From an uncultured Pseudomonadota bacterium (GTDB lineage Bacteria; Oederibacteriota; Muellerivitia; Muellerivitales; Muellerivitaceae): a stretch of 64,000 nucleotides of DNA. The stretch is taken from contig CAWIIP010000005.1 in NCBI GenBank assembly GCA_963836235.1, forward strand, positions 224,001 to 288,000, in the 5' to 3' direction. The notes under the pieces were generated by a model. It made no database searches. It was not told the DNA's origin and saw only the letters and a list, made by a program, of their open reading frames with translations. Of the stretch, positions 15,301-40,461 are shown in pieces (positions within the stretch are counted from its first letter, which is position 1; every line of letters starts with the position of its first letter). Made by a program: the position numbers and the translations under genes.

Positions 15301-18300
15301 CCCCACTCGGTTATCGGATTCCCATTGCCGTCTAAAACCTGCACCCGGTTGTTTCCGCTGTCCGCCACGTAAACCGTGGTTCCGTTGGAATTGACGGCGA
15401 TCCCGATGGGATACTCGAACTGTCCTGGCCCGTAACCACCTCCGCCCCATTGGGTGATGGCATCGCCCGCCGTGTCGAAGACATAAACTTGATTGTTGTA
15501 ATTATCCGTCAGGTAAAGGTGGTTGTTCCCGTCCACGGCAAGGCCCATGGGGTTGATAAACTGGTTTTGGCCGCTTGGTCCCCACTGGGTGATGGGGTTT
15601 CCCTGAGGATCGAAAACATCCACCTGATCGGTATCGCCGTCCGCTGCATAGACGTTTCCTTGGCCATCAGTTGCCATCCCATTGATCGCCGAATCAGTTG
15701 ACGAGGAAGAAATCAGGTTGCAAAAGATTGGAATGGGCGACGGGCCAGGGGTGGGAGTTAAGGTCGGCGAAGGTGTAAAGGTTGTTGTCGGTGTGGGATA
15801 AGGGCTGGAGGAACAAGGTCCCAAACGTTCAATATTTTCATGGTCGTTCACTGCCGCGTAAAAGGTGCCATCCTGCGGCGCAGCCACGCCACCCGGTGAG
15901 ACAACACCACTGATCACGCCCACCTCGTTTCCTGATAAATCGCTTATCCCTAAACCACTGCCCTGAGTCGCCACACAAACACGATTCGCGGTACTATCCA
16001 CCGACAGGAAGACCGGATTGGGCAACCAGGAACTCGTGTTCCATTGGTTGAGGAAGTTCCCACTTCCGTCGAAAACCTCGATCAAGCTGGGATTAAAGCT
16101 TTCCACGTAAACCCGTCCTTGGTTGTCCAAGGCCAGGCCCGTTGCATAATCGAATGTCCCGTTTCCGTCATCCCCGGCTGTCCCCCATTGGGTCACCGGA
16201 ACTCCTTGGCCATTGAAAACCTCAACTCGGTTGTTTGCTTCATCCGCCACATAAACCGTTGTTCCGGCCGAATTCACCGCTATCCCCCAGGGAGCCTGGA
16301 ACTGACCTATCCCGTTTCCGCTTCCCCCCCATTGGGTGATGGGGTTGCCCGCAGTATCGAAAACATAAACCATATCGTCTTCATAATCGGTCATGTAAAG
16401 ATGGTCGTTACCATCGATCGCCAGTCCCATGGGGTAAATAAATGGGTTCTGGCCGTTGGAGGGTGGGCCCCACTGGGTGACGGCATTCCCGTGGGGGTCG
16501 AAAATATCCACTTGGTTGTTGTCAACGTCCGCCGCGTAGAGGTTGCCTTGGGTATCCAGCGCCAGCCCGTCGATAGACCCGTCCGTTGACGAGGAAGAGA
16601 CTACGTTGCAATAGATGGTACCCGGTACGGGTGACGGGGTGAGGGTTAAGGTCGGAGTTGGCGTGAGGAGGGGGGTCTGTGTTGGTGAAAGCGTGATAGT
16701 CGGCGTCGGTGTGGGATAGGGTATTGTGGAACAAGATCCCAAACGGTTTATAACCCCTTGATCATCGAGCGCCGCGTAAAAAGTGCCGTCCTGTGGCGCG
16801 GCAACGCCGCCGTAAGTTGGCGCTTGGGGGATGGAGCCACCGGTCCCACTGATCACGCCTACTTCGTTTCCTGACAAATCGCTTATCCCCAAGGTGTTAT
16901 TGATTGTCGTGATGTAAAGCTGACTCGTCGTATTGTCAACCGAAAGGAATAGTGGATTGGGCAGCCAAGAGCTTATGTTCCGCTGGTTTAGGAAATTACC
17001 ATTCCCGTCGAATACCTCGATCAAACTCGGAATATAGCTTTCAACGTAAACCCTGCCCTGATTATCTAGGGCCACTCCCGACGCCAAATCGAAAGTTCCG
17101 TTGCCGTTGTCTCCGGTTGTCCCCCATTGGGTTATCGGCTCCCCTTGACCGTTGAATGACGCAACCCTGTCGTTTATAAGATCCGCCACATAAACCGTGG
17201 TCCCAGCCGAATTGACCGCGATCCCAAAGGGGGCCTGGAACTGGCCTGTCCCGCTTCCGCTCCCGCCCCATTGGGTGATCGGGTGACCCGCCGTATCGAA
17301 AACATAAACCATGTCGCCCAAATAATCCGTCATGTAAAGATGGTTATTTCCGTCGATCGCCAGTCCCATGGGGTAAATAAACTGGTTCAGGCCATTGGAG
17401 GGTGGCCCCCATTGGGTAACGGCGTTTCCATGGGAATCGAAAACATCTACCTGGTCGGTATCCGCGTCGGCGGCATAGAGGTTTCCCTGGGTGTCGAGTG
17501 CCAGCCCGTTGATCGACCCATCCGTTGATGAGGAAGAAACCTCGTTACAATATATAGAGACGGCTGTTGAAAGAGGGGTGGGAGTCGGGGTGCTGGTGGG
17601 GGTTTCCGTCGGGACCAGGCTGTTCGTATACCATGTGTCGTTCAAATACTCGTTGCCATCCCAACCGGCGATGACCCAGAGCTTGTTGTTGAAGGCCACG
17701 CTGGAATGGTCGGATCGGGGGGAGAAGTTGGCCGAGCTGGTGGCCATGGTCCAGTTGGAACTGCTATTAAGGTACCAAACATCGTTGGCCTCGGTGCCGT
17801 CGTCCAGGGTCCCGCCGATGACGAACATGAAATTGTCCATTATCCCCGCCGAAGCGTCCTGCCTCCCTTGGGTGCCGAAGGTCGTGGGTCCGTACCAATG
17901 GTTGCCGTCCGTGTACCAAGCGTCATTCAAAAGGTCCCCTTCCGCCGGAACCCCTCCGGCCACCCAAAGCGAATTGTTATAAGGGGCGCCCGCCTGATAT
18001 GCCCTCAGGGGATAAGCCGTGCCAGAGTTGGAACTCGGAGTTTTGGAACTCCAATTCATCCCGTCGGAGGAAACCCAAATGTCGGATAAGACATTGTCGT
18101 TTTGGTCCAGGCCGCCGACCAGCCACAATTCAGGTCCGTTCCCCAGGTTCTGAACCATCAGGGAGCTTCCTGTCCGGGGGCTGAAGGGAGCCTGGGTGAC
18201 AGCCTCGGTCCAGTTCACGCCGTCCGGCGAGGACCAAACGTCGTTATTCAGGCTGTCGTTGAAATTCTGCCCGCCCACCACCCAAATCTTCCCGTTAAAG

Positions 18301-21300
18301 GCCGCCGCCCCAGGGTCGATGCGGGGGCTGAACCCGGTGGAAACCGTTTGTTGGGTCCAATTCGCCCCGTCGGTGGAGGACCAAGTGTCGTTGAAGAACT
18401 CGCTGTCGTTGCCTCCCCCAATGACCCACATCCGGTTATTAAAGGTAACACTGGCCTGGTCCGCCCTTTGTGGAAACCCGGCGTTCGCCGTGGCCTGTGT
18501 CCAATTGCCGTATGGCCCCACGGTCGGCGTGGGTGTTGGTGACTCATAAGGAGCCAAGGGTGAGTACCAGGAATTGCCGTTGTTGTTGCCGGAAAGGTCC
18601 GTCCCACCCACGATCCATAAAGCATTATTCCCTTGGGGACTGGACGATGGATTGAATACCAGTCCGGATAATCCCTGACGGGGGCTGAAATTCGCCGCCG
18701 CCGTCTCCTCGGTCCAATCGGTCCCATCGCCGGAACTCCAAACGTCGTTTTTGACGGCTCCGGAGGCTCCATGACCTCCCATGATCCACATCTGCCCATT
18801 CGCGACCGTCCCGGCGAAACCGGTGCGGTACTCAAATGGCAGGCTGGTTCCCGTGCTCCAGTGGACCCCGTCCGAAGTGGACCAAGCCATGCTTTGATAT
18901 CCATAAAAATTGGGGTTTGGAGTGACGTCAGTATTAGTAACAGGTATACCGCCGACCACCCATATTTGGCTGTTAAGGGCCATGGCCTGGAAACCCGAAG
19001 TAGTGGCAAAAGGCCCCCTCGGCTCTTCGTCCCAATTGATGCCGTTGGTGGAAGACCAGACGTCCGCCAACCCGTCTCCCCCCATCACCCACATCTGGCC
19101 GTTGAAGATCACGACCTGGTGGCCGCTTCGGGGCGGGAAAGAAGCGCTGGCCGTCACCTGGGTCCAGGAAACTCCATCCAATGAGTTCCACACGTCGTTG
19201 GTCACGCCCTGGCTCGTCTGCCCGCCAATCATCCAAAGCGCCCCGTTGAAGCTGACGGCGGCCTGGCCTGTCCTGGTCCCAAAAGGCGCCAAAACGGTAG
19301 AAAGATTCCAATTGATCCCATCCGGGGAATCCCAAATATCCGCTCCCCCGCCTCCGATTACCCAAATGGAACCATTGAAAGCCGTGGCCGTCTGGCCTTG
19401 CCGGTTAGGGAATGCGCGGCCAACCGGGGCCCCTTGGAGCCAGCCTTGGCCGGTTATGGAAACGACGGTAGGGGTAGGGGAAATAGTCGGGGTTGCCGTG
19501 GGGGTGGGGGTGGAAGTCACGGCGGGGGAAGGCGTAGGCGTGAAGCTATTGGTCGGTGAGTTCGTGATGGAACCGGTGAATGTCGGGCTGGGAGTAAAGG
19601 TCGAAGTGGGTGTCCCCGGGCCCGGTGTCCAGGTGGAGGCCGGCGTATAACCCAAAGCGGGCGCGGTCCAAACGTCGTTCAAGTCGTTTCCATTGGAGTC
19701 CTGCCCACCCACGGCCCACATTTGATTGTTGAAGGCCGCCGCCGAGAAGTTGGTTCGCGGTATATAAGCCGTAGTCACCGCCACCTGGTTCCAATGGATT
19801 CCGTCCTGGGTAAACCACTGGTCTTGTAGGGCGTTGTTTCCGTTGATACCGTTAGGAATAAATAAGGCTCCCCCGCCGAAACTCATGGGTTCGTAGTTGG
19901 AAGTGTAGCTGGTTGCTTCATAAGCATAAGGCAGGTTTCCGGAAACTTGAGACCAATGTACGCCATCCGAGGTTTTCCATACCGTCTCGTCGGTTATTGG
20001 AGTGGGTCCTCCACAATCCCAAAATCCCCCAAAAATCCAAATGTATCCATTGAAGGCCATAGTGTTATTGACGCCCAAAATCGGCACTTGGCTTTCCAAG
20101 GTCCAATTCATCCCATCCGGCGATGAGAAAAGGCGGCTCGCGTTTCCACAGCTTGAATCCATAACCCATAACTGGTTATTCAGGACATAGGCCCCTATGA
20201 CCTGGCTGAAAGGCGCCTGGGCATCCGCCAAGTTCCAATTCACCCCATTTGGCGAACTGAAAACCTGGTACTGGCCATTGTCCCAATCTATCGCGTTGAA
20301 GACCCACAAATTCCCATTAAATGTTGAAGTGACCAAGCCGGTTTGCTCGTCGAATGGCGTGTTATCGGTGGCCAGTCTCCAGTTCACCCCATCAGGGGAA
20401 TTCCAAACATCTCCCAAGGGGCCGATGTCGCTGTTGGTTCCCCCGGCCATCCAAAGAAGGTTTTGTCCCGCCCAAGAACCCGTCGAGGGCTGGAAGGCCG
20501 TTAAGCCGGGATTGGAACGGGGAATGAATGCGGTATCACCCACGGCCTGGGTCCATACCGCGTTGCCGTCGGGCGTCGGGGTTGAAGTGGGCGTAAAGGT
20601 GGGCACCTGGGCGAAATTGGAATACCAGGCGTCTCTTAGATCGTAACTATAATTATTTTCTGACTGCGACTCCGGCAAAAGGGGATCGCCGCCCGTTATC
20701 CAAATGTGGTTATTATCCGTTGCCGCCGCCCCATAGGCTCGGCCGGGAAAGGGGGCCGCGTAAGTCGAAGCCGTCCAATTGATACCATCCGAGGAATGAT
20801 AGACATCATTAAAGGAAATATAAGGTTGATGCTGTGAATAGACCGGATTGGGGGGGGGGTATCCTCCACCCAACACCACCATTTGGTTACTAATGGGATC
20901 AACCTGGGCCGTAAAACCCCACCGGGGTGGCCAAGAAGCGTTGGCCGTAGCCTCGGTCCAGTTCACACCATCGGGGGAACTCCAAACGTCATTCAGGGGT
21001 TCATTAAAAAAGTTGCTCCCACCCATCACCCAAAGCTGGCCGTTGTAGGCCAAGCATTGGTGGTAAAAACGGCCGGGGAAAGCGGCGGAAGCCGTCTGCT
21101 TGGTCCAATTCACCCCGTCCGGCGAACTCCAAACGTCATTGAGATCGTTATTGTCCAGGTCTTCCCCACCGATGACCCACATTTGGCCATTGAAAGCCGT
21201 TACGGTAAAAGCGGTCCGGTAACCCCATGGGGCTTGGGCCTTTGTTTCGGTCCAGTTGACGCCGTCCAAGGAACTCCAAACATCGCTCAAATAGGTCCAC

Positions 21301-24300
21301 CCCCCGTTATAGACAGCAACCGCGCCCATTACCCACATTTTCCCGCCGAAAACCACGGCCCCAAAATCCGCCCGAGGAGGAAAGGCCGCCGCAGTCACCG
21401 CTTCGCTCCAATGGATGCCATCCGAGGAGGACCAAACATCGTTAGCGGGGTTGCCACCATTTTCGTTTCCAAAGGGCTCCCCGCCGATGACCCAATAATG
21501 GTTGTTGAAATAAAGGGCTTGGTGGTGCGCCCTCTGCCCGAAACCTGCCGCGTCGGTGGCTTGAAGCCAGTTGCTATAGGCATCCCCATTGGGCGTAGCT
21601 GTGAAGGTAAAGGTGGCGAAGAAAGTGGGGGTCTCGGTCGGCGTTGGGGTCCAAGTGATGGTGGGGGTTGGGGTGGCATAAGGTGTCTGGCCGCAAGGAC
21701 CGAAATGCTGGATATTGCCTTGGCCATTCAACGCCAAGTAAAAGGTCCCGTCCTGTGGCGCGGCTATTCCACTGGTGTAACCAATGCCACCCATCACTCC
21801 TGCTTCATTGCCTGACAAGTCGCTTATCCCTAACTCCCCCAATGCAGAGTAGAGGTAAATCTTTCCCACCGTGTTATCCACTGAAAGAAGATCGGGATAG
21901 GGCGCCCAAGTGCTTGTGTTCCATTGGTTGAGGAACTTTCCCGTTCCGTTAAATACTTCGATCCAATCAGGAACCTCGCTCGTCACGTAAACTTGACCCT
22001 GGTTATCCAGGGCCACGCCCGTCGGGAAGTCAAAAGACCCCTGCCCATCGTCCCCTTCCGTTCCCCATTGAGTTATCGGGCTTCCCTGTCCGGTGAAAGC
22101 CTGAACCCGGTTAACTTCACTGTCCACCACATAGACCGTGGTTCCCGCCGCGTTGACCGCGATCCCGGTGGGGTCCTCGAACTGGCCCGTCCCGGTACCA
22201 TATACACCTCCCCATTGGGTGATGGGATTTCCGGCTGTGTCAAAAACAAAAACCATGTCCCGGTAATCATCGGTCATGTAAAGATGGTTGTTGCCGTCGA
22301 TGGCCAACTGATTAGGGGTATCAAAGTGGTTCACGCCGTTGGCGGGCGGCCCCCATTGGGTAACGGGATTGCCCTGGGCGTCGAAGACGTCCACTTCATC
22401 GTAGTCGGTGTCGCCGGCATAGAGGTTCCCTTGGCTGTCCACGGCCAATCCACTGATAGACCCATCCGTTCCAATGGAGGAAATGACGTTGCAATAGAGC
22501 GGACCCGGTGGAGTGGGCGTGAAGGTGGAGGTATAACCGTTCAAGTTGGTGCTGGTGGAAGTCGGTGAAATGGTCGGAGTGGAGGTGGGCGTATGGGTAA
22601 AGGTGAAAGTCGAGGTATAACCGTGCAGGTTCGTATTGGTAGGGGTAGGGGTGAAGGTAAAGGTTGCGGTCGGTGTGGGTAAAGGCGTGTTGGTGGGCAA
22701 TGGCGTGAAATTGGGCGGCAGGGGTATTTGCGCCACGCGGACGTTGGAGTAATCGTCCATGAAGGCCAGCGTCCCCCCCGGCCCTCCGCCGGGCGCGTAG
22801 GAAATCACCACCCCCATGAAGGGATCGTTCGGCCCCTCCTGGATGGAAAGCTGGCAAAGAAGATTGTTGTTGGTGTCATACCCATAAACCGTCAGACCGT
22901 CCGTGCCTAGCACATAAACGCGCCCGTCCCCAGTGGAAACCTGCATCTGGGGGCTGGCGCCGGAAGGCGTATCCGGGTTCACTTCCTGCGCCCAAGCGAC
23001 GGAAGGCTCTAGGAAAGAAAAGCATTTTGGAAGCAAGGCGAGATTTTCTCCTTCGCCCAAAGGCAAGGAGGCGGTTTGAATACCTTGGCCTAGTTGTTGT
23101 TGTAGTCCGTTACCGTAAAGGGTGACGTTCCAATATTTATCCCGGATGACGGAGCAACCGGGCGGCAAGAACCTACTGCTTAAAACGTCATTTGGAGATT
23201 GGGTAATAAGGGTATCGGAAACTTCCGTGTCCTCCACAAAAGTCATGTACAAAACATACAAATTACCTTGGCCGTCGAAAGCTATGTTTTTAACTTGATC
23301 ATTTGGGAGAGGAGAACAATTCGGACTACCGCCGACAATTGGACCATTGCTGTTGATCTCCGAATACCAGAGGGTGGGTTCGGTGGGTGTTGAGTAACAC
23401 GACGCCATGACAGCCGACAAACCGTTCGGAGAAATATCATATGAAATCGGCTCATAATTCTCAAAAAGACCTAAGTCCGTGTCGTTCAGCTTGAAGGTTT
23501 TTAGGTTGAATTGAACCATATACCCATGGTTAGGATCTGAATTGGTATTAAACCCGCAAGCGTAAATATCCCCTACTGGGTCCGTCTCGAAAAACTTAAA
23601 CGGCCCCCGAGCAATGGGAAAAATGGATAAAGCCGATAGGACATCCTTAAGCGTGGTCGGTGTTTGCGCCGGCGTCGGATTGGGCGTGGGGGTGAAGGTG
23701 GGCGTGGGAGTGGTAATAAAAAACGCGTTGGCGGTATCCGCCTCGGCCTCAAACCCAGCCCAGCCGTTTAAATCATAGCCCGTTTTCAATTGGTAGGCGA
23801 TGGTATGGGGGTCGCCATCCATTGGACGATTGTTTGCGTCCTTCGCCCCGCTGATGGAAAGCGTAACGCTATCCCCTGCTTCAGAAGTGGTAATTAAAGT
23901 CGAAGGGGCATCCGCACTATAAGTTTGCCCATCTAACCCCCAGCTTCCAACCGGAAATATCCAAGTGCTTACAGGCGTTGGCGTACTCTTAACATAAAAT
24001 AAAGCTTCCACCGTCGGCACCATCGTCGGATTCACATTCATGGGGTTATTGAAGTAGAAGTCAAAGTGCGTTCCCACCCCGAATAACGCCGGAACGTTGG
24101 TGTTCACCGTCGGCGCGTTGGCCAGAATGGTTACGGGATACGGAGTGGGAGTACCGATCATTTCCACTGTCGGTGAAGGTGGCGGGGCCAATGGCCATTG
24201 GGCCTGGTAGATCGGCGTGGCGTTTTGGCTGACGGTGACGCCTTGGACGTAGGCACGGGGAAAAGTGGACACTTGAAAAGCAAAATTCGTCACGGGTCCA

Positions 24301-25682
24301 GCTTCGTAACCATTCCAAACGCTAGGGCCTGTACTTAAGGACAAAGTAGCGGGAGTTGAAGCATCGGAATCTAAAGCCTCTGTGGAAGAAATTGAAGGAT
24401 TGGGAGTACCGGAAGGAAAGGGATTAATGGAAATGCTTACCCCTTGTCCAATGATGCTAACAGGGCAATTAGAGGAACCGCTCGGAACAATGAAGGTTCC
24501 CTCCCAAGTTGGGAAATTACCACTACTAAAATCATTCCAAACACCAGTAGCTGTGACAGCATTAGTTCCGGAACTCAAAAAGACCTGAAGATTTTCCCGA
24601 GTATCAATTGATTCATTCGCAGTCAGAAGGATGACCGCCGTCGTTCCGGCGATTAAACTATCATTTTGTTGTGTGGTTAGCTCCCTACTACTTGGCTCAT
24701 CACTAATATTCATCCCATCAATCGTAGTTACATTAAAAGGGGGTATGGAAGAAGTTGTGACATCATCCCACTGAGCTGAATATCTCAAATTAGCATCGGA
24801 GTCATTGTCCTGGTAGATATCAATCGCTCTGATGATAGGAGGGCTAACAGCGTAAAAATAATTTAAAATACCTTGGTAATCCCAACCTTTCTCTCGGGCT
24901 AAAGTCAATGCGCCTTGTTGAGAAAGGCCTTCGGCATTAAAAGCAGGGACATCCCTAGTTGCCCCAGTGTCATCTCGACGTTTAAGATATGGAGGAAAAT
25001 TCCAAAACCCAGGGAAAGCAGGGTAAAAAATTTCATCTTCGGAGTTATCTCCAAACGCATCAGAAAATTTTGCTAAAGTTAATTCAGTCACGCTGGTTGT
25101 TCGATTAAAAGCGAAAAGAGCCTGATGGGCAGTTTCAGAAACAGAATCCCCGGCCCCACTATCCCCCCCAACAACATCGGTGTCATAAGGTTTAAAGGCT
25201 TCTAAACTTAGGGGTTCGATAAATGTCGTTTGATTTTCATCCACTATGGTTAAGGGTTGGGTAGAATCCGTCACATCATAAGTCAGCCCGTCTAATTGTC
25301 GAAAAGCCCTTGATTGAACCGATGCGGTGAAACTTCTAGCTGCAACAGCTTGAGCTTTCAAGGCCTCTGGTGGCTGGTTGTCACCACCTATTTCAGAAAA
25401 AACAACTCCATCAATGAATTCATCATAAGGCATCGAAATAACTAAACTAACACCAGCATTATACGCAATAACCGTGACGCCATTAATTGCTTCAATCTGA
25501 TTTACAATATCTTGATTTAAATTTGATGTCTCACCCAAAAAAACCGTAACAGCTCCCGGCAATTGAGTAATAGGACCGCTTTGGGCTTTACAAAAGGAAA
25601 TATCCACGACATTTATTAAAAGAAAAGTGGATATCAATAGAACTACTTTTAAATTTTTACTCTTTGATCCATTTGTAAACAT
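12318..25682 (-). CDS. Giant 4454-aa secreted protein: SpoIID/LytB-like domain, NHL and Kelch/BNR-like propellers, Thr/Pro linkers, CBM3-like domain, T9SS/FlgD-like C-terminal domain
   Basis: Signal peptide; SEIG..PEALKAQAVAARS and GLSQ.GA...G..YQ.IL.YFY; repeated GIAVN..G.TVYVAD and DVWSS.DG.NW; terminal SGLYLFVL...KVGKIAIIR. Confidence 0.85.
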   Translation of the reverse strand: MFTNGSKSKNLKVVLLISTFLLINVVDISFCKAQSGPITQLPGAVTVFLGETSNLNQDIVNQIEAINGVTVIAYNAGVSLVISMPYDEFIDGVVFSEIGGDNQPPEALKAQAVAARSFTASVQSRAFRQLDGLTYDVTDSTQPLTIVDENQTTFIEPLSLEAFKPYDTDVVGGDSGAGDSVSETAHQALFAFNRTTSVTELTLAKFSDAFGDNSEDEIFYPAFPGFWNFPPYLKRRDDTGATRDVPAFNAEGLSQQGALTLAREKGWDYQGILNYFYAVSPPIIRAIDIYQDNDSDANLRYSAQWDDVTTSSIPPFNVTTIDGMNISDEPSSRELTTQQNDSLIAGTTAVILLTANESIDTRENLQVFLSSGTNAVTATGVWNDFSSGNFPTWEGTFIVPSGSSNCPVSIIGQGVSISINPFPSGTPNPSISSTEALDSDASTPATLSLSTGPSVWNGYEAGPVTNFAFQVSTFPRAYVQGVTVSQNATPIYQAQWPLAPPPSPTVEMIGTPTPYPVTILANAPTVNTNVPALFGVGTHFDFYFNNPMNVNPTMVPTVEALFYVKSTPTPVSTWIFPVGSWGLDGQTYSADAPSTLITTSEAGDSVTLSISGAKDANNRPMDGDPHTIAYQLKTGYDLNGWAGFEAEADTANAFFITTPTPTFTPTPNPTPAQTPTTLKDVLSALSIFPIARGPFKFFETDPVGDIYACGFNTNSDPNHGYMVQFNLKTFKLNDTDLGLFENYEPISYDISPNGLSAVMASCYSTPTEPTLWYSEINSNGPIVGGSPNCSPLPNDQVKNIAFDGQGNLYVLYMTFVEDTEVSDTLITQSPNDVLSSRFLPPGCSVIRDKYWNVTLYGNGLQQQLGQGIQTASLPLGEGENLALLPKCFSFLEPSVAWAQEVNPDTPSGASPQMQVSTGDGRVYVLGTDGLTVYGYDTNNNLLCQLSIQEGPNDPFMGVVISYAPGGGPGGTLAFMDDYSNVRVAQIPLPPNFTPLPTNTPLPTPTATFTFTPTPTNTNLHGYTSTFTFTHTPTSTPTISPTSTSTNLNGYTSTFTPTPPGPLYCNVISSIGTDGSISGLAVDSQGNLYAGDTDYDEVDVFDAQGNPVTQWGPPANGVNHFDTPNQLAIDGNNHLYMTDDYRDMVFVFDTAGNPITQWGGVYGTGTGQFEDPTGIAVNAAGTTVYVVDSEVNRVQAFTGQGSPITQWGTEGDDGQGSFDFPTGVALDNQGQVYVTSEVPDWIEVFNGTGKFLNQWNTSTWAPYPDLLSVDNTVGKIYLYSALGELGISDLSGNEAGVMGGIGYTSGIAAPQDGTFYLALNGQGNIQHFGPCGQTPYATPTPTITWTPTPTETPTFFATFTFTATPNGDAYSNWLQATDAAGFGQRAHHQALYFNNHYWVIGGEPFGNENGGNPANDVWSSSDGIHWSEAVTAAAFPPRADFGAVVFGGKMWVMGAVAVYNGGWTYLSDVWSSLDGVNWTETKAQAPWGYRTAFTVTAFNGQMWVIGGEDLDNNDLNDVWSSPDGVNWTKQTASAAFPGRFYHQCLAYNGQLWVMGGSNFFNEPLNDVWSSPDGVNWTEATANASWPPRWGFTAQVDPISNQMVVLGGGYPPPNPVYSQHQPYISFNDVYHSSDGINWTASTYAAPFPGRAYGAAATDNNHIWITGGDPLLPESQSENNYSYDLRDAWYSNFAQVPTFTPTSTPTPDGNAVWTQAVGDTAFIPRSNPGLTAFQPSTGSWAGQNLLWMAGGTNSDIGPLGDVWNSPDGVNWRLATDNTPFDEQTGLVTSTFNGNLWVFNAIDWDNGQYQVFSSPNGVNWNLADAQAPFSQVIGAYVLNNQLWVMDSSCGNASRLFSSPDGMNWTLESQVPILGVNNTMAFNGYIWIFGGFWDCGGPTPITDETVWKTSDGVHWSQVSGNLPYAYEATSYTSNYEPMSFGGGALFIPNGINGNNALQDQWFTQDGIHWNQVAVTTAYIPRTNFSAAAFNNQMWAVGGQDSNGNDLNDVWTAPALGYTPASTWTPGPGTPTSTFTPSPTFTGSITNSPTNSFTPTPSPAVTSTPTPTATPTISPTPTVVSITGQGWLQGAPVGRAFPNRQGQTATAFNGSIWVIGGGGADIWDSPDGINWNLSTVLAPFGTRTGQAAVSFNGALWMIGGQTSQGVTNDVWNSLDGVSWTQVTASASFPPRSGHQVVIFNGQMWVMGGDGLADVWSSTNGINWDEEPRGPFATTSGFQAMALNSQIWVVGGIPVTNTDVTPNPNFYGYQSMAWSTSDGVHWSTGTSLPFEYRTGFAGTVANGQMWIMGGHGASGAVKNDVWSSGDGTDWTEETAAANFSPRQGLSGLVFNPSSSPQGNNALWIVGGTDLSGNNNGNSWYSPLAPYESPTPTPTVGPYGNWTQATANAGFPQRADQASVTFNNRMWVIGGGNDSEFFNDTWSSTDGANWTQQTVSTGFSPRIDPGAAAFNGKIWVVGGQNFNDSLNNDVWSSPDGVNWTEAVTQAPFSPRTGSSLMVQNLGNGPELWLVGGLDQNDNVLSDIWVSSDGMNWSSKTPSSNSGTAYPLRAYQAGAPYNNSLWVAGGVPAEGDLLNDAWYTDGNHWYGPTTFGTQGRQDASAGIMDNFMFVIGGTLDDGTEANDVWYLNSSSNWTMATSSANFSPRSDHSSVAFNNKLWVIAGWDGNEYLNDTWYTNSLVPTETPTSTPTPTPLSTAVSIYCNEVSSSSTDGSINGLALDTQGNLYAADADTDQVDVFDSHGNAVTQWGPPSNGLNQFIYPMGLAIDGNNHLYMTDYLGDMVYVFDTAGHPITQWGGSGSGTGQFQAPFGIAVNSAGTTVYVADLINDRVASFNGQGEPITQWGTTGDNGNGTFDLASGVALDNQGRVYVESYIPSLIEVFDGNGNFLNQRNISSWLPNPLFLSVDNTTSQLYITTINNTLGISDLSGNEVGVISGTGGSIPQAPTYGGVAAPQDGTFYAALDDQGVINRLGSCSTIPYPTPTPTITLSPTQTPLLTPTPTLTLTPSPVPGTIYCNVVSSSSTDGSIDGLALDTQGNLYAADVDNNQVDIFDPHGNAVTQWGPPSNGQNPFIYPMGLAIDGNDHLYMTDYEDDMVYVFDTAGNPITQWGGSGNGIGQFQAPWGIAVNSAGTTVYVADEANNRVEVFNGQGVPVTQWGTAGDDGNGTFDYATGLALDNQGRVYVESFNPSLIEVFDGSGNFLNQWNTSSWLPNPVFLSVDSTANRVCVATQGSGLGISDLSGNEVGVISGVVSPGGVAAPQDGTFYAAVNDHENIERLGPCSSSPYPTPTTTFTPSPTLTPTPGPSPIPIFCNLISSSSTDSAINGMATDGQGNVYAADGDTDQVDVFDPQGNPITQWGPSGQNQFINPMGLAVDGNNHLYLTDNYNNQVYVFDTAGDAITQWGGGGYGPGQFEYPIGIAVNSNGTTVYVADSGNNRVQVLDGNGNPITEWGTYGDAGGGTFDYMTGLTLDNQGRIYVASYNPNWIEVFDGSGNFLDQWNTGSWAPNPVMLAVDSTANQVYIEAQNVLGISDLSGNEVGVVSGIVSPGGVAAPQDGTLWVGANNLGVIERLGPCSQTPYPTPTPTLTPILIPTLTPLPPPVSIYCNVVSSSSTDGSIDGLALDTQGNLYAADVDNNQVDIFDPHGNAVTQWGPPSNGQNPFIYPMGLAIDGNDHLYMTDYEDDMVYVFDTAGNPITQWGGSGNGIGQFQAPWGIAVNSAGTTVYVADEANNRVEVFNGQGVPVTQWGTAGDDGNGTFDYATGLALDNQGRVYVESFNPSLIEVFDGSGNFLNQWNTSSWLPNPVFLSVDSTANRVCVATQGSGLGISDLSGNEVGVISGVASPGGVAAPQDGTFYAAADDLNNIERLGSCGQAPYPTPTPTYTLTLTGTYTFTPSLTATFTPTNTGTETPTQTPTNTTTFTGTNTPTNTATNSATYTTTNTATNTLTNTATYTTTNTPTNTTTDTPTSTTTKTSTNTATYTTTKTTTNTPTKTTTSTPTNTTTNTSTNTATSTGTNTPTNTATSTPTKTVIYTPTNNATNTTTKTTTNTATNSPTASPTLSPTNTRTSTASLTPSQTPTRTETKTATKTPTPANSPTKTSTFTVTGTSTKTATLTNTATKTFTVTKTYTPTITPTPSPTTACGTNTSALALLEEYTSSCGSNSVYHLFAVVNNGAAVTLSDLTIKFWPYDTSGVSLVGSISTGGCIWNPTCSHNVTGTTISALNFSPACGPSTTQMANWEMTVSTTDNTVLSGGTSWVGLQTLVNRSDNQPFVPGTSYWYSPCVMASTYSTNSHYAIYLKGNLVTASGGIPPSCRPLATCTPSGGQGAIVADLARMNGNPTLTPTPIPPLLASVVAAPNITNGQQPIRLLTYLTSQAKVSLAIFTVSGEQVYGTETEGSAGLNTIVWNLQNNGSQPVASGLYLFVLRVHNGASQETKVGKIAIIR
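14259..14846. repeat. Intragenic duplication, copy 1 (copy 2 at 16026-16613)
   Basis: Offset 1767; antisense ORFs 14277-14822 and 16044-16589 have identical translations. Confidence 0.85.
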
Positions 25683-27269: not shown

Positions 27270-27299
27270 TCCCTCTTCGCGGGTCCCCGTCGTGGACAG
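27270..27299. repeat. Cassette-boundary site 1 (left arm divergent)
   Basis: tccctcttcgc-GGGTCCCC-GTCGTGGACAG. Confidence 0.8.
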
Positions 27300-27312
27300 G
27301 TGTTTTCGTTAA

Positions 27313-27597
27313 TTAATGAGCGGCCAGATGGTGGCGTTTCTTTTTAGCTAGATAGTGCTGGTCCAAGCCTTGGCGAAGGATCGATTTGATAACTGCTTGG
27401 CGGCTTACATTCATTTCGCGGACCAACCCATCCAATTCCTTAAGCATGTTTTCCGCGAAATCCACATTAACTCGGCGGATGGCCGGCATCATTTTTCCGT
27501 GGTTCGTAAAATGTTTGGAGATGTTCTCCCCTTTGTCAGCCATTTGAGCTAATTGTTCAGCCGTTGGAATTGTTTTTGCCTTATGAACGGTTTTCAT
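27313..27597 (-). CDS. CopG/BrnA-like antitoxin
   Basis: RRVNVDF...LD......VSRQAVIK RHH pattern; overlaps toxin. Confidence 0.8.
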   Translation of the reverse strand: MKTVHKAKTIPTAEQLAQMADKGENISKHFTNHGKMMPAIRRVNVDFAENMLKELDGLVREMNVSRQAVIKSILRQGLDQHYLAKKKRHHLAAH

Positions 27598-27859
27598 ACA
27601 ATTTCCTTTCTTCCTTAGTGGATTTCCAAAGAGTGACTAAGTGAATGTACTCTCCATCCCGATCCGATCTCTCTTCATAGATCACCGTATATAGCCTATC
27701 CCCCACCCAGCCGATGGCCCGCCATTGCTCCGGCACCTCGGATCGTTGATCCAAGTAGTAAGGGCTTTCCCAGAGCACTTGAACTTCTTCAAAACCGATT
27801 CCCCGTAGGCGGTTTCGACGAAGGGCTTCGCTCTTGTGTTTGTCGAATTTAACCCGCAT
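27581..27859 (-). CDS. BrnT family toxin
   Basis: FDKHKSE..RRN..RGIGFEE...WRAIG......TVIYE.R....HLVT.WKST..ERKLYE. Confidence 0.82.
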   Translation of the reverse strand: MRVKFDKHKSEALRRNRLRGIGFEEVQVLWESPYYLDQRSEVPEQWRAIGWVGDRLYTVIYEERSDRDGEYIHLVTLWKSTKEERKLYENRS

Positions 27860-27868
27860 CCACGCTCC

Positions 27869-27885
27869 GGTATAACAGTTATACC
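27869..27885. promoter_or_regulatory. Putative BrnTA autoregulatory operator
   Basis: Perfect palindrome GGTATAAC-A-GTTATACC, 9 nt upstream of the toxin start. Confidence 0.6.
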
Positions 27886-27929
27886 ATCAATTTCTTATTA
27901 CTTCAAGAAGGCATCCCACGCGAATTTAG

Positions 27930-27959
27930 GTGTCCACGAAGGGTCCCCGTCGTGGACAA
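27930..27959. repeat. Cassette-boundary site 2
   Basis: GTGTCCACGAA-GGGTCCCC-GTCGTGGACAA. Confidence 0.88.
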
Positions 27960-27975
27960 GAACTAACCCATTATT

Positions 27976-28320
27976 TTATTCGAATAAGAGAATTTTAAGG
28001 TTTTCGATCAACTTCACTTTATCAATCGGGCTTAACTCCCCCAAGTGCTTGACGAACCGGCGGTTATCAATGGCCCGGATCTGGTCAACCAAGATATCGG
28101 AGTCCTTCTTTAGGTTGTTTCCTTTTTTGGGAAGGTGAACCCGGAGTATCTCCGCTCCATGAATGACGTTGGTGGTAATGGGACAGACGATGGTACTGGG
28201 ATGCAATCCATCATTTAAAAGGTTGGTTTGAAGGACGACGACGGGCCTAGTTTTTCCAGGCTCGGTGCCGAAGCGCGGACTTAGATCGGCCAGGTAAATA
28301 CTAAATTTCCTGATTTTCAT
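27976..28320 (-). CDS. PemK/MazF family toxin
   Basis: ADLSPRFGTEPGKTRPVVV, VCPITT, DQIRAIDNRRF. Confidence 0.92.
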   Translation of the reverse strand: MKIRKFSIYLADLSPRFGTEPGKTRPVVVLQTNLLNDGLHPSTIVCPITTNVIHGAEILRVHLPKKGNNLKKDSDILVDQIRAIDNRRFVKHLGELSPIDKVKLIENLKILLFE

Positions 28321-28556
28321 TCAATGGTTGCTTCTTCAAGCTTTTCCATCTCACTCAAGATGTCCATGGAGTTATTTCGCGTAAGCAGGGATTCTTTTTG
28401 CAGTTTTTTACGAAGACCTTTGCGCCTGTTGAACGCGTTGTAAAAATCCAACGCCTCGTTGATGTAAGTATTTCGCGGCATGTGGAGCCGCTTAGTCTGA
28501 GCTTCAACATCCTCAAAGATTTCGCTTTTGATTTTAAGGGACAGGACTTTAGTCAT
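28317..28556 (-). CDS. Putative RHH antitoxin of the MazF-like toxin
   Basis: LSLKI...PRNTYINEALD; 4-nt overlap with toxin. Confidence 0.75.
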   Translation of the reverse strand: MTKVLSLKIKSEIFEDVEAQTKRLHMPRNTYINEALDFYNAFNRRKGLRKKLQKESLLTRNNSMDILSEMEKLEEATIE

Positions 28557-28570
28557 TTTGAACTCCTTTT

Positions 28571-28597
28571 AAGGTATATACGAATAGTATATACTTT
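28571..28597. promoter_or_regulatory. Putative MazEF-like operator
   Basis: AAGGTATATAC-N5-GTATATACTTT inverted repeat upstream of the antitoxin. Confidence 0.55.
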
Positions 28598-28630
28598 TCG
28601 GTTTAAAAAGGAACAAATTTTCTAATTTAG

Positions 28631-28660
28631 TTGTCCACTCCGGGTCCCCGCCGTGGACAA
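28631..28660. repeat. Cassette-boundary site 3
   Basis: TTGTCCACTCC-GGGTCCCC-GCCGTGGACAA. Confidence 0.88.
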
Positions 28661-28667
28661 AGCCACC

Positions 28668-29258
28668 CTATGGCTGGTTCTTCAAAGGCCCGGCGGCCTT
28701 GTAAGCATTCATCAGGATGCCCGTGGGGAAAGAACGGGTGCTTATAAGTTCGAACGAGCGCGGTGGGGTCCCCTCCGCGAAAATGCGCTTTCCCTTTCCC
28801 AGAAGGACCGGATCGACGAGCAGTAGCAGCTCATCCGCGAGGCCGTGCTCCAGCAGGGGTGATATCAGCGATATGCTACCGCAAAGGACCAAGTTAGGGC
28901 CCTCCTGCGACTTGACACGGCGAACGCCCTCGATCATGTCCGGCCCGATGGCCTCGGAAGGGCCCCACTCCAGGCCTTCCGGCCGGTGGGTCACGACGTA
29001 TTTCTTCGCGCCGTTGATCGCGTCCGCCATCGGACTGCTCGGCATCTTCGGCCAGAAGCTTGAAAAGTAATCGTAGGTGCGCCGGCCCAACAGCAGGTCG
29101 AATTTCCCACCATAGGCCGCGAGCACCGCGTCTCGGCCCTCAGGGGTACGGTAGGGCCCCGACCAGTCGCCGTAGGGGAAATCCTTGTCGTCGCCCGGGG
29201 CGCCAACCTGGATCACGCCGTCCAACGAAATATGATTGGCGATCTTCAGTTTTCTCAT
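28668..29258 (-). CDS. Dihydrofolate reductase / RibD C-terminal family protein
   Basis: MRKL....ISLDGV, LLGRRTY, GS..L...L...L.DEL.L.V.PV.LG.GKR.F. Confidence 0.88.
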   Translation of the reverse strand: MRKLKIANHISLDGVIQVGAPGDDKDFPYGDWSGPYRTPEGRDAVLAAYGGKFDLLLGRRTYDYFSSFWPKMPSSPMADAINGAKKYVVTHRPEGLEWGPSEAIGPDMIEGVRRVKSQEGPNLVLCGSISLISPLLEHGLADELLLLVDPVLLGKGKRIFAEGTPPRSFELISTRSFPTGILMNAYKAAGPLKNQP

Positions 29259-29350
29259 TTTGTGTCCTCCTTCACAGGCTCTTGTCGTTCACACGGGTTA
29301 CCATCGTGCGTAAATAAAGGGGCCAGGGTTTTCCCTAACCTCCGATTTGG

Positions 29351-29380
29351 TTGTCCACGATGGGTCCCTGTCGTGGACAA
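29351..29380. repeat. Cassette-boundary site 4
   Basis: TTGTCCACGAT-GGGTCCCT-GTCGTGGACAA. Confidence 0.88.
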
Positions 29381-29519: not shown

Positions 29520-29879
29520 CTATTTTTTGTCCAGCAAAACTTTGAGATTTCCTTTATCAAGATCATTCCAATTTGACGTTGCAGCATCAACCACTAAAGG
29601 AACTAATCCAAAGAGATCAAGAATCAATAAACCTGGCACTAATTGAGATTGAATTATTGCAGTTTTTTCTTCATACCCTTCTTTTTTAAAAGTTAAATTT
29701 GCAGAATGCTTTTTTTCCATCTCGACATTTATTGGGGTTTTACCGACACGATTACCATCTACATAGACATCGGCACCTTGAGGATCAGAATCCAACATTA
29801 CGGGTTTTAGATTTCTATTAAATAGGGTGCCGCACCCGGTCGTTGCAATTAACAAAACAATGCTTATCAAATAACGCAT
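29520..29879 (-). CDS. PEGA-domain lipoprotein
   Basis: Lipobox TTGC; SDPQGADVYVDGNRVGKTP...KKEGY. Confidence 0.8.
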   Translation of the reverse strand: MRYLISIVLLIATTGCGTLFNRNLKPVMLDSDPQGADVYVDGNRVGKTPINVEMEKKHSANLTFKKEGYEEKTAIIQSQLVPGLLILDLFGLVPLVVDAATSNWNDLDKGNLKVLLDKK

Positions 29880-29908: not shown

Positions 29909-31611
29909 CCCGGATTTCCCAGATGGAATTTCCTTTCGAGTATAATAAGACAACGTTTGGCCATATAAACAAAGGTTTTTCTTCGTGTTGGGGAACATGA
30001 GAGGGGGAAATGCAATGGGTGAAGGCGGAAAAGACGCTCTTCGGGTGGTTTTTGACCCTGGCCTCAAGTTGGAGTTCCATGGTGCGAAGGTCACTTCCGA
30101 TGGCGGGTTGATTCCCTATCGCGAACTCGACGAAGCTTTTGGTTTGACTGACAGAACAGAAAACATCCTTTGGGATCGGCGGACCGGTAAGAATACGCAA
30201 CACACGATTACGGCGCTTCTTCGCCAGTCGGTATTCAGCCGCTTGGCCGGTTATGAGGATACCAACGACGCAGAACGCCTGAGTGTCGATCCTGCGATGC
30301 GGCATGTGATCGGAGGACGGGCCAGGGAAAAACAGGCCGCCTCCACCAGCCAGATGGGTCGTTTCGAGACGGAGGTCCTCACCCAGTCGAAGAATTTGAC
30401 CGGCTTAATTGACTTATCGGGCCAATGGATCGATGGAGTCCATGAGAAAAAGCCCATACAACAGATCATCCTCGACATGGATAGCTCAGTGAGCGAGACC
30501 TACGGGGATCAGGAAGGTTCCTTGTACAACGGTTACTTTGGCTGTACCTGTTACCATCCCCTGTTTTGCTTCAACCAGTTCGGCGATTTGGAACGGGCTA
30601 TGTTGCGCAACGGCAATGTGGCCAGTGCCCACGAATGGCGTTCGGTTCTTGAACCGGTAGTTGCCCGCTACCGGGGTCTTTCCATCAGCCGGTTTTTCCG
30701 GGGTGACGCGGCTTTCGCCCGTCAGGAACTATACGAATACCTAGAAGACGAAGGATATCTTTACGCGATCCGCCAACCTGCCAATGCCATACTCCAACGG
30801 GAAATCGAGCCATTTTTAACCCGTCCCGTGGGCCGCCCCTCCCACAAGCCGGTTGTCCGGTTTCACAGCTTCCAATACCAAGCCGTCAGCTGGGACAAAC
30901 CCCGCCGCGTGGTGGCGAAGATCGAACATCACAACGGGGAATTGTTCCCAAAGGTGGGTTTCATCGTAACGAACATGCGACGACCGGCACCCCAGGTGGT
31001 GAAATTCTACAACGGAAGAGGCACGGCTGAGCAGTGGATCAAAGAGGGAAAGTATGCGATGAAGTGGACAAGACTAAGCTGCCACGACTTCGCGGACAAC
31101 CAAGTGCGCTTACAACTATTCGCCCTGGCCTACAATCTGGGCAACTTCCTGCGCCGACTGGCACTGCCAGAACTGGTGAAACATTGGTCGCTAACGACCT
31201 TGAGGGAAAAACTCATCAAGATCGGGGCTAATGTCATCCGTCATTCGCGGTACGTTATTTTCCAGATGGCGGAGGTGATGGTTTCCCGACGCCTGTTTGC
31301 TGAAATCCTCAATCGGATACGGCTACTGGCAATGGTAAGGCCGCGAGCGCCAGTACTGCGATAACCGCAGGAAGGCATCAAGGCTTCAACCCGAGCGACT
31401 ACCGCAGGATAGGTGTGCGCTCACAACGAGAATTGGCTTTCCAGAAGGTCAATTTCAGCTTTTTTGGGCACAGAAACCTTTTCCTGGGGCTTATTTCAGT
31501 GGCCCAGGACGGAAAATTCCGGATTCGGATGGAAGAAGCGGGGGGGGGCGATATAATGAGAAACAAATTACCCGGCAATGTTTTCAGAGAAGGTCATCTG
31601 GGAAATTCCGG
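29909..31611 (+). mobile_element. IS1380 family insertion sequence
   Basis: IRs CCCGGATTTCCCAGATG / CATCTGGGAAATTCCGG; flanks CTAAA/CTAGA (imperfect TSD). Confidence 0.88.
30015..31364 (+). CDS. IS1380 family DDE transposase
   Basis: TSDGGL, GYEDTNDA..L..DP, LDMDS, FRGDAAF, YNGRGTAEQWIKEGK. Confidence 0.93.
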   Translation: MGEGGKDALRVVFDPGLKLEFHGAKVTSDGGLIPYRELDEAFGLTDRTENILWDRRTGKNTQHTITALLRQSVFSRLAGYEDTNDAERLSVDPAMRHVIGGRAREKQAASTSQMGRFETEVLTQSKNLTGLIDLSGQWIDGVHEKKPIQQIILDMDSSVSETYGDQEGSLYNGYFGCTCYHPLFCFNQFGDLERAMLRNGNVASAHEWRSVLEPVVARYRGLSISRFFRGDAAFARQELYEYLEDEGYLYAIRQPANAILQREIEPFLTRPVGRPSHKPVVRFHSFQYQAVSWDKPRRVVAKIEHHNGELFPKVGFIVTNMRRPAPQVVKFYNGRGTAEQWIKEGKYAMKWTRLSCHDFADNQVRLQLFALAYNLGNFLRRLALPELVKHWSLTTLREKLIKIGANVIRHSRYVIFQMAEVMVSRRLFAEILNRIRLLAMVRPRAPVLR

Positions 31612-39440: not shown

Positions 39441-40461
39441 AAAGGGGTCAGGCCTCTAGATTATACTTCAGGAGCTTCTTCGCGAATTCCTTGTCCTCCG
39501 CCAATCGCTTCTTGGCCTTTACCCAGTGATGCCCAACTGCGCCCAAACTTACTCCCATTCTTTTTGCTATCTCCTTCAGGCTCAACCCCGCTTCTTTCTT
39601 TAACAGGTATATCGCCACTTCTTTGGGCTCTCGTCTTCGGGCCCTCGCCACCAGCACTTCTTCCGGTTTTATTCCATGGTTTTTTGCCACCCATTCGATG
39701 ACCTTTTCCGGGTCCTGTTTAATCACGTGTTTTTGGTACTTGGGCACATCCAGGTGCCGGTGCTTTTTCCCAACCTCGTGCACATGGCCTAAAAACTCGT
39801 CACTTCCCAGGTAAATTCTTGAGGCTAGCTGTTCCCAGGGGGATTCCTTTTTCCCCATTCCATCTTCTACAAACCGCTTATAAGCCTCATGCGCTCTTTT
39901 CCGTTCTTTTCCAAATTGTCCCAAGATCCAGTCCACCTCCAACCACGGTTCCGGTTTTTCCAATCCTGCCGTGGCCCGGTAACTGCTCCACTTCCAGTCC
40001 TTGGGATGTTTCACCATCCGGGCCCTCACCGGGTTCAAAACCACATATCGACTTAATTCCTTTAAATAAGTCTCTTTTTCCACCACTAAGGCCTTATACC
40101 GGCCCTGGTAGAGATGGCCGACCCGGTGGTGTTTCTTGTTAAATCGTTGGGTATAAATGCCATTGAAGTGTTTCATGGCGACGGACAGGTTAGCCGCCGG
40201 TGTTTCCAAGAGGAGATGGTAGTGGTTGTCCATCAGCACCCAGGCATGGCACACCACCTGGTTTTCCTCGATCATTTCGCCCAAAAGGCGCACAAACATC
40301 CACCTGTCGGAGTCATCCGTTACGATTTTCCTCCGCTCGTTACCCCGGGAGGTCACATGGTAAACCGCGCCTTCATAATGGATTCGTTTGGGTCGGGGCA
40401 TGGGCATATCTTACCGGCGGCGTTGTTCTCGTAAACTATATTCTAGAGGCCTGACCCCTTT
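39441..40461 (-). mobile_element. Y1-transposase element with perfect 20-bp terminal inverted repeats
   Basis: AAAGGGGTCAGGCCTCTAGA (39441-39460) / TCTAGAGGCCTGACCCCTTT (40442-40461). Confidence 0.85.
39448..40407 (-). CDS. RAYT/IS200-like HUH (Y1) transposase with C-terminal HTH
   Basis: YHVTSRGN, LMDNHYHLL (HUH), GHLYQGRYK, YVVLNPVRA, WSSY. Confidence 0.9.
   Translation of the reverse strand: MPMPRPKRIHYEGAVYHVTSRGNERRKIVTDDSDRWMFVRLLGEMIEENQVVCHAWVLMDNHYHLLLETPAANLSVAMKHFNGIYTQRFNKKHHRVGHLYQGRYKALVVEKETYLKELSRYVVLNPVRARMVKHPKDWKWSSYRATAGLEKPEPWLEVDWILGQFGKERKRAHEAYKRFVEDGMGKKESPWEQLASRIYLGSDEFLGHVHEVGKKHRHLDVPKYQKHVIKQDPEKVIEWVAKNHGIKPEEVLVARARRREPKEVAIYLLKKEAGLSLKEIAKRMGVSLGAVGHHWVKAKKRLAEDKEFAKKLLKYNLEA

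Follow-up and report, generated by a model that had tools for sequence, protein, structure and literature searches.

Integrons have long been regarded as the sole dedicated platform for the capture of gene cassettes in bacteria. Their recombinase is the tyrosine recombinase IntI, and their cassette site, attC, is a folded sequence of 57-141 bp. Here we describe arrays of gene cassettes that were separated by a simple dyad of 30 bp in a genome where no IntI was found. The first of them was located between positions 27,270 and 29,380 of a 64,000-nucleotide stretch of contig CAWIIP010000005.1 (hereafter the window), which corresponded to C5:224001-288000 of the genome G000 (3.97 Mb in 5 contigs). 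The arrays looked like the product of an independently evolved gene-capture system, integron-like but without the integron integrase. The system behaves as an integron would but is not one, and it is family-wide in an uncultured phylum. A literature search at the level of titles and abstracts found no description of such arrays.

Several known systems share features with these arrays. Sedentary chromosomal integrons and clusters of attC sites lacking integron integrases (CALINs) also consist of co-oriented, mostly single-gene cassettes that are promoter-poor or bear toxin-antitoxin (TA) genes and that each have a palindromic site. Many of their arrays have no adjoining recombinase, and array positions are kept between genera while the cassettes differ. 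On the other hand, a crossover in the middle of the present site would leave half a site at each cassette end, unlike in an integron, and IntI is divergent at the proximal array end, whereas the candidate serine recombinase discussed below was convergent at the distal end. In the composite islands of the staphylococcal cassette chromosome (SCC), the large serine recombinases Ccr act in tandem insertion downstream of a resident gene with direct attachment-site repeats, and recombinase-free cassettes depend on an enzyme supplied in trans. SCC elements have a length of tens of kilobases, occupy one locus (rlmH) and use a full-length Ccr. The present system was similar in its tandem cassettes with direct attachment-site repeats, but its cassettes measured 0.2-4.7 kb, occupied many loci, and its candidate enzyme had no zinc-ribbon or coiled-coil region. 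The pdif modules and related Xer-exploiting elements of Acinetobacter are also small, often carry TA genes including BrnT/A-type pairs, and have arm-spacer-arm sites of ~28-30 bp with one well-conserved arm and a recombinase in trans (PMC6449649, PMC13141974). As far as these sources describe them, pdif sites are similar to the host dif and change orientation from one to the next; the present sites were direct, chromosomal at ~12 loci and unlike the dif-like site of the clade. Finally, the rAID-1 clusters of Bacteroidales are integron-like arrays of small accessory and immunity genes with repeated intergenic sequences and no IntI, and according to the available text every cluster has a XerD-family recombinase at its 5' end (bioRxiv 10.1101/471110). 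None was present there in our arrays, which included two SUKH-3 immunity-type open reading frames (ORFs) as a parallel to the immunity genes of rAID-1.

An initial annotation of the window, made from the sequence alone, had described four directly repeated 30-bp palindromic sites starting at 27270, 27930, 28631 and 29351 (spacings of 660, 701 and 720 bp), one minus-strand unit in each interval, and gaps of 13, 16 and 7 nt between the stop codons and the sites. All of these were found again, and Pfam searches supported the assignment of the units to a BrnT/RHH pair, a MazF pair and a RibD_C gene. The features of the array were as follows.

27270-27299, minus strand: Site 1, downstream end of the array; position weight matrix score 20.0 bits; conserved arm and core TGTCCACGACGGGGACCC (minus strand)
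27313-27597, minus strand: ribbon-helix-helix (RHH, CopG-type) antitoxin, BrnA-like, second gene of cassette 1; Pfam RHH_1, E 2.7e-5
27581-27859, minus strand: BrnT-like toxin, first gene of cassette 1; Pfam BrnT_toxin, E 4e-7; score of 30.7 bits, short of the Pfam cut-off of 34.5
27930-27959, minus strand: Site 2, complete; 49.6 bits
27976-28320, minus strand: MazF/PemK toxin, second gene of cassette 2; Pfam PemK_toxin, E 3.4e-24
28317-28556, minus strand: 79-aa ORF upstream of MazF, presumed antitoxin; no Pfam family match
28631-28660, minus strand: Site 3, complete; 46.9 bits
28668-29258, minus strand: RibD_C (dihydrofolate-reductase-like) protein, cassette 3; Pfam RibD_C, E 6e-11; GC 0.56-0.66
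29351-29380, minus strand: Site 4, complete, upstream end of the array; 47.3 bits

Homologues of the 79-aa ORF accompanied MazF in two other loci (L066 and L102). The higher GC content that had been noted for the dihydrofolate-reductase-like cassette was evident in comparison with the TA cassettes (0.39-0.50). The array was flanked by two convergent resident genes, a 116-aa ORF (end 27228) and a PEGA lipoprotein gene (29520-29879), the latter co-oriented with the array and having its own terminator, after which site 4 came. A repeat search found a 19-nt family (core and right arm) with four copies at 27280, 27940, 28641 and 29361, and a 37-nt family whose three copies were sites 2-4 and took in the extra ATTT(A/G)G that these sites had been said to share. 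The pattern GTCCAC-N3-GGGTCCC-N3-CGTGGAC matched sites 2-4 with 0 mismatches (chance expectation 0.01 per window), and none of 100 shuffled windows reached 6 pattern matches. A search of the window array against Rfam gave 0 matches. The left arm of site 1, previously described as divergent, turned out to be absent: unrelated chromosomal sequence replaced this weak arm, and no hairpin was predicted at the site. It was plausible that site 1 was the original target site, although most arrays terminated with complete sites.

The anatomy of the site was derived from 65 sites of G000, whose consensus in gene orientation was tTGTCCACGAC-GGGGACCC-gtcgTGGACAa. As a refinement of the earlier description of 11-bp arms around an 8-bp core, a better reading of the consensus was a 14-2-14 palindrome, tTGTCCACGACGGG-GA-CCCgtcgTGGACAa, with GA at the center. 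This consensus matched a dyad around a non-palindromic 2-bp dinucleotide with asymmetric conservation of the arms, and the position of cleavage was not readable from it. The arm beside the preceding stop codon (the strong arm) was almost invariant, the other (weak) arm was free at four inner positions, and the reversed pattern was seen at only two sites in G000. Half-sites stopped precisely after GGGGACCC. Among 322 sites, 15 of the 67 first-arm variants at position 9 were paired (15.9 expected), and at position 8 we counted 8 paired variants (6.3 expected). The arms thus behaved like independent half-sites and not like a selected hairpin.

Two kinds of site variants were also observed. Long variants at G000:C2:427140, C2:1231169 and C2:1943049 had at least ~23 nt (ATTCGAC...GGCAGGCC) right after GGGGACCC, and one of them kept the second arm past the ~23-nt insert. 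The core sub-variants GGGGAGCC and GGGGAGGC were present in runs of adjacent sites (G024:C198:7557-8123; G000:C4:145088-146659), which hints at site subfamilies.

When strong sites were defined by a weight-matrix score of at least 25 bits (the matrix having been built from the sites), G000 had 71 of them. The possibility that the motif was scattered genome-wide through ordinary intergenic DNA, which the initial annotation had named as a threat to its interpretation, did not hold: 65 of the 71 sites were in 12 clusters of 2-14 sites, and the orientation was uniform in 11 of the 12. The 52 inter-site intervals had a median length of 836 bp (range 234-4747). Only co-oriented ORFs were present in 43 of them, only opposite ones in 3, and both kinds in 6. 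Stop codons were a median of 17 nt away from the site. The cargo was diverse and accessory-like: 67 ORFs yielded 94 Pfam families, with BrnT three times, PIN twice and SUKH-3 twice among them. Besides TA genes and SUKH-type immunity proteins, there were hydrolases, regulators and a P-type ATPase. Cassette genes were co-directional with replication at 20 of 20 sites on C4, at 8 of 8 on C5 and over most of C1 and C2, and on C1 the cassette orientation switched across the terminus.

A static function of the sites has to be considered here. They could be palindromes similar to repetitive extragenic palindromic (REP) sequences, acting as 3' stabilizers of mRNA, terminators or operators and spread by a Y1 transposase of the REP-associated (RAYT) type, with immobile cassettes between them. 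Accordingly, the sites were located just past stop codons, some of them beside ordinary genes, full sites could fold as DNA (-9.6 to -12.4 kcal/mol), and G000 had three RAYT-like Y1 genes, one of them in the window (39448-40407). However, the clustering of sites, the recurrence of cassettes in other contexts, the lack of compensatory change between the arms and the absence of a T-run 3' of the site in the 65-site consensus spoke against this explanation. Moreover, the Y1 genes had other flanking repeats of their own and a different distribution, since they were present in 16/24 family genomes and in 7/9 other families sampled, and 6 of those 7 were site-free. Thus, we rejected REP sequences, or mosaics of them, with a RAYT and considered the static explanation very improbable. 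One sampled family (f6) had a single 1-mismatch match to the site under a looser pattern. The Y1 gene of the window (minus strand) encoded 319 aa with a long C-terminal extension and was flanked by its own short GGGG.../...CCCC motifs, GGGG upstream and CTGACCCC downstream. The same family was expanded to 12-20 copies in the genomes G005 and G012.

The cassettes recurred with different neighbors. A second copy of the BrnT/A cassette of the window, with ~91% identity, was present at G000:C2:1196607-1197285 in a 14-site array; its homology with the window copy started at the core on one side and stopped at the far arm on the other. A 1.2-kb cassette with NHL repeats was 100% identical between two arrays. 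Altogether, we collected from G000 and the fetched loci 11 non-redundant pairs of homologous cassettes with unrelated neighbors, 3 of them at 100% identity, and in these pairs the homology broke inside the site. Variants of the strong arm segregated with the upstream ORF and those of the weak arm with the downstream cassette. In G001, a genome of the same genus, both the MazF cassette (83%) and the BrnT/A cassette (78%) had site-to-site matches, but these were 14 kb apart; no match was found there to the RibD_C cassette or to the window flanks. The three units of the window were thus not a fixed block, which the initial annotation had allowed for as another way to be wrong: two of them were 14 kb apart in G001, and a second BrnT/A copy was elsewhere in G000. 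At the orthologous locus of G012, from another genus, the flanking gene and the first site were 89% identical, the homology halted at the site, and the cassettes differed. In public read archives, for which assembled (Logan) contigs were used and where the best run held 0.34 of the sampled words, the RibD_C cassette was found with at least 95% identity (mostly at least 99%) in contigs of three other soil runs with different sequence outside the sites, and these contigs also contained isolated sites whose flanks differed. Because the same cassettes recurred with other neighbors and homology ended inside the site, we suggest that cassettes move as units with a crossover in the central GGGGACCC. 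It was very likely that the cassettes are mobile and exchanged at the site.

Such exchanges could in principle proceed without a dedicated recombinase. RecA-dependent exchange or slippage over the 18-19 identical bases, e.g., after uptake of foreign DNA, would fit the lack of a recombinase at most arrays, the breaks of homology inside the longest identical stretch, and the identity of site DNA that was kept across genera as under gene conversion. However, for homologous exchange to be efficient, 30 bp would be a very short stretch. In addition, a perfect dyad with an asymmetric center, identical in 14/17 genera, points to a sequence-specific dimeric protein, and the strict single orientation and half-sites ending exactly after GGGGACCC would not be predicted. 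We therefore regarded RecA-dependent exchange as unlikely.

The ends of the arrays bear on another explanation, namely transposase-less insertion cassettes with 11-bp terminal inverted repeats that are moved by a DDE transposase in trans and duplicate the 8-bp target GGGGACCC. Inverted 11-mers did bound the cassettes, exactly one 8-bp core was present between neighbors, and two arrays (the window array and C4:135627-146659) finished with arm and core and no second arm. On the other hand, upstream array ends had complete sites, the uniform orientation was unusual for DDE elements, and we found no autonomous element that shared these ends. This explanation was quite improbable. Two insertion sequence (IS) families were near arrays: a DDE_Tnp_1_4 element (transposase of 459 aa) was close to two different arrays (window 29985-31364, plus strand; G000:C1:372133-373512), and a 1494-bp IS66-like element was inserted in array 14 and present beside array 8. 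Both were rejected as mobilizers because their ends were unrelated to the site. A recombinase of the IS110 family was rejected as well, as no match was found. Pfam scans of the large or recurrent cassette ORFs revealed cargo only, and in all-against-all clustering of the array flanks only the short serine recombinase and group II reverse transcriptases emerged as recurrent neighbors.

The distribution of the site was determined with the strong half-site at up to 1 mismatch, for which a control pattern gave ~0. The site was present in 26/30 other genomes of the same GTDB family (27/31 with G000 included) and in the only genome sampled from the sister family (1/1), whereas it was found in 0/67 genomes that represented 21 further families of this phylum. 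Family genomes had up to 95 sites, and the site was conserved letter for letter in 14/17 family genera sampled. Among public named genomes, multi-site loci were from metagenome-assembled genomes (MAGs) mostly labelled 'candidate division FCPU426', from peat and soil. A scan of viral contigs for the site gave 0 matches.

An obvious explanation for co-oriented ORFs that are each followed by a palindrome and rich in TA cargo would be a true integron, or a CALIN, with unusually short attC sites, and the group II introns described below, which home into the site, are in line with it. However, in a whole-genome search for IntI (TIGR02249) the top score was 40.9 bits, far from the cut-off of 265. The 30-bp site had no R/L box structure and no covariation of its arms, which varied independently, so it was not attC-like. 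An integron crossover at the end of the site (G/TT of R') was also not seen, as homology broke centrally and each arm segregated with a different cassette. Since there was no IntI and the site was not attC-like, we concluded that this was not an integron, and a true integron in disguise was extremely improbable. In contrast, the earlier proposal of a non-attC cassette system with its own site was essentially right and gained support from the absence of IntI, the independent arms, the clustering of sites and the modular exchange.

Group II introns were present in the cassette site at G000:C2:1476562-1478495, at C1:223049 onward and at L207:1063-2995. They were inserted between GGGGACCCA and TCGTGG in sense orientation. 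Their identity was confirmed by matches to Rfam RF02005 (60.4 bits) and RF00029 (51.5 bits) that flanked an RVT_1 ORF. This reverse transcriptase ORF had 436 aa, and such ORFs recurred in 8 site-bearing loci. Another group II intron lineage inserted 7 nt further on in one soil contig. A similar behavior has been described for group IIC-attC introns, which home into the attC sites of integrons (PMC3001079), and in this respect the two systems were alike.

Tyrosine recombinases were among the candidates for the enzyme; the initial annotation had suggested testing the integrase at 48301 of the window and host Xer or serine recombinases. The integrase (48301-49410, 369 aa) was located directly upstream of tRNA-Arg(TCG) at 49446 (region 48301-49522). 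It was a member of a family of tRNA-linked island integrases with six paralogues of ~367 aa in G000 that were 57-70% identical, and 4/6 were within 3 kb of a tRNA gene, so the role suggested for it was not borne out. One paralogue was 88-90% identical across genera and more conserved than the Xer-like gene. Only 2/8 tyrosine recombinases had any site within 30 kb, and none of the 583 ORFs of 56 multi-site loci was a ~367-aa integrase. In 233 site-selected public loci (1.36 Mb), only two tyrosine recombinases were found, neither of them adjoining a site.

The Xer-like protein (353 aa, G000:C1:328837-329895) was the only tyrosine recombinase here that was neither island- nor tRNA-linked. It scored below the cut-offs for XerC, XerD and XerA, and its nearest solved relatives were XerA and XerD. 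Orthologues with 56-79% identity were present in 23/24 family genomes and in 1/1 sister-family genome, whereas the other 8 families sampled had only XerC/D-type genes with 27-35% identity; other families of the phylum carried two XerC/D-like genes of ~300 aa. A single-copy 26-bp palindrome, TTCGGTATAT-CTGTAA-TTATACCGAA, was located 3 nt upstream of the start codon (region G000:C1:328837-329924), and this module of gene and palindrome was found in 10 family genomes. In G000 and G003, gene-strand bias and GC skew switched at the palindrome, which placed it at the replication terminus. From this analysis, the module looked like a replacement of XerCD of the XerS/difSL type, in which a recombinase gene is beside its own dif site (PMC2731167).

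The clade's Xer-like recombinase could also recombine the cassette sites, as in pdif modules or integrative mobile elements exploiting Xer (IMEX). The arm-core-arm geometry in which one arm was strong and the other weak, the coincidence of the Xer-like protein with the site in distribution, and its freedom from island or tRNA linkage would agree with this. However, the common distribution concerned a single clade and counts as one event. The arms of the dif-like palindrome had nothing in common with those of the cassette site, the terminus lacked a TGTCCA...TGGACA site, and no dif with cassette-site arms and another center was found. Moreover, flanking sites are inverted in pdif modules but were direct here (11/12 clusters had a single orientation), and the cassette site did not resemble the host dif. 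Because the single Xer-like recombinase of the clade is paired with a dif-like site at the terminus that is unrelated to the cassette site, host Xer was probably not the recombinase, and Xer-driven modules were an unlikely explanation.

Two serine recombinases were encoded in G000, a full-length large one inside an island and a short one of 278 aa (C2:163827-164663, outside the window). The short protein had the Pfam domains Resolvase and Recombinase without zinc-ribbon or coiled-coil motifs, so it was not a typical large serine integrase. Its gene was convergent on the downstream end of another array, with a site 33 nt past the stop codon. Short forms of 275-289 aa were present in 5/31 family genomes (G000, G001, G022, G042 and G045). 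In 4/5 of them a site was located 5-40 nt after the stop codon, and the site of the fifth (G001) was degenerate as judged by eye. Mutual homology of the five loci was limited to the gene. The other 14 serine-recombinase loci inspected (full-length, other short forms and fragments) had no site nearby. Among the 233 site-selected public loci, 7 contained ORFs for serine recombinases, and in every case a site was present at 3-114 nt from the 3' end of the gene. The site counts of the five genomes with the short form were 73, 59, 59, 40 and 15, and the median of the other 26 was ~4 (rank-sum by hand, z ~ -2.9, with relatedness and genome size not controlled).

The short protein terminated precisely where the Recombinase domain would give way to the zinc ribbon, before the CxxC region of its full-length relatives, and no separate C-terminal zinc-ribbon piece was found elsewhere in G000. 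In a large protein collection, the short-form clade comprised 19 clusters (74-100% identity, all of 275-283 aa). Residues R18, S20, D89, R90 and R93 were invariant in 29 sequences, which indicated an intact Ser/Arg catalytic motif in a gene next to the site. In an integrase-attP complex, the Recombinase domain contacts T10-T11 (~bp 10-11) and the zinc ribbon covers bp 16-24 of the attP half-site (11-19 in the attB model), while the coiled coil enforces direction in large serine integrases (PMC3783163). Therefore, for a protein without zinc ribbon and coiled coil ~14 bp per half-site would be sufficient, and direction control would probably be lost, as would befit a reversible uptake and release of cassettes at identical 30-bp sites.

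On balance, we favored with moderate confidence the interpretation of the window array as one small array of a lineage-wide mobile-cassette system, with the short serine recombinase as the best guess for its enzyme. That this protein, acting in trans, was the enzyme itself was a more tentative proposal, to which we would give clearly less than an even chance. The remaining probability was shared among the Xer-like enzyme, exchange without a recombinase, a transposase in trans and a mechanism not recognized so far. Several observations weighed against these proposals. The enzyme was not present wherever the sites were, as 5/31 family genomes had the short form and 27/31 had sites. It was missing in the near-complete genomes G005 (98%, 39 sites), G010 (99%, 27 sites) and G018 (99%, 95 sites), and 17 further array ends in 7 genomes had no adjoining recombinase. 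Binning of MAGs may lose array-linked contigs, and several arrays stopped at contig ends; we regard the loss during binning as an excuse and not as evidence. The adjacency could also be explained by an array that inserted into an integrase gene and truncated it. A strong and a weak arm are more common in Xer-type sites than in those of homodimeric serine recombinases. Positions 18-20 differed in 4/5 diverged cassette pairs, more often than a crossover only at the center predicts, and neither this nor the arm asymmetry was simply explained by a homodimer cutting at GA. Furthermore, some cassettes contained ordinary-looking genes, e.g., for an HflX-type GTPase and glycosyltransferases, and no excision circle, empty site or junction at read level was seen, the only public runs with this DNA being assembled contigs, which cannot show circles or empty sites.

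In gene direction, a cassette began with a weak half-site (gtcgTGGACAa) and a 5' region of its own, continued with one gene or a small operon, and closed with a strong half-site (tTGTCCACGAC) 5-90 nt past the stop codon; adjacent cassettes had the central GGGGACCC in common. While this anatomy, the modular exchange and the location of the homology breaks were observed, the chemistry is a proposal: according to the favored interpretation, excision and insertion would occur by conservative site-specific recombination between two 30-bp sites with a central crossover. The non-palindromic GA in the center would set the orientation and thereby lead to head-to-tail arrays that grow downstream of resident genes. 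With its 14-2-14 geometry, the site would accommodate a dimer of the short serine recombinase, and such a dimer could act in insertion as well as in excision. A fuller scenario, which we considered doubtful, was that of a serine-recombinase counterpart of the integron: a former large serine integrase that lost its directionality module (zinc ribbon and coiled coil) and now takes up, shuffles and releases single-gene cassettes reversibly, site for site, at 14-GA-14 throughout the family in the candidate phylum FCPU426, where it would have built up to ~95 sites per genome.

Thus, an uncultured lineage from soil and peat had reached an integron-like architecture with a very simple, different site and no IntI. 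If the short serine recombinase was indeed the enzyme, then cassette capture evolved at least twice and from unrelated recombinase families. In this case, the protein would be a natural large serine integrase stripped of direction control, and a compact recombinase with a 30-bp site would be available for engineering. Whatever the enzyme, the 30-bp site offers a PCR handle on the accessory genes of soil FCPU426, similar to attC-primed PCR in integrons.

Several minor observations concerned other genes of the window and other recombinases. An ORF of 4454 aa at 12318-25682 of the window (minus strand) contained repeats of the NHL type, others similar to Kelch, and long Pro/Thr linkers, and NHL-repeat lipoproteins occurred as cassettes too. 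Full-length large serine recombinases were rejected as candidates, since they had no site nearby and no relevant palindromes adjoining. A 'type B' serine recombinase of 229 aa that adjoined a single metagenomic array (L234:11023-11712; also in G018:C87 and C84) was rejected because it had its own different palindrome, CTGTAACGCTTCG-CA-CGAAGCGTTACAG, directly after the gene. A copy of this palindrome was present at G000:C1:399246-399269, 105 bp from the end of array 3 of G000, and beside it we identified a remnant similar to the 3' flank of the short serine-recombinase gene.

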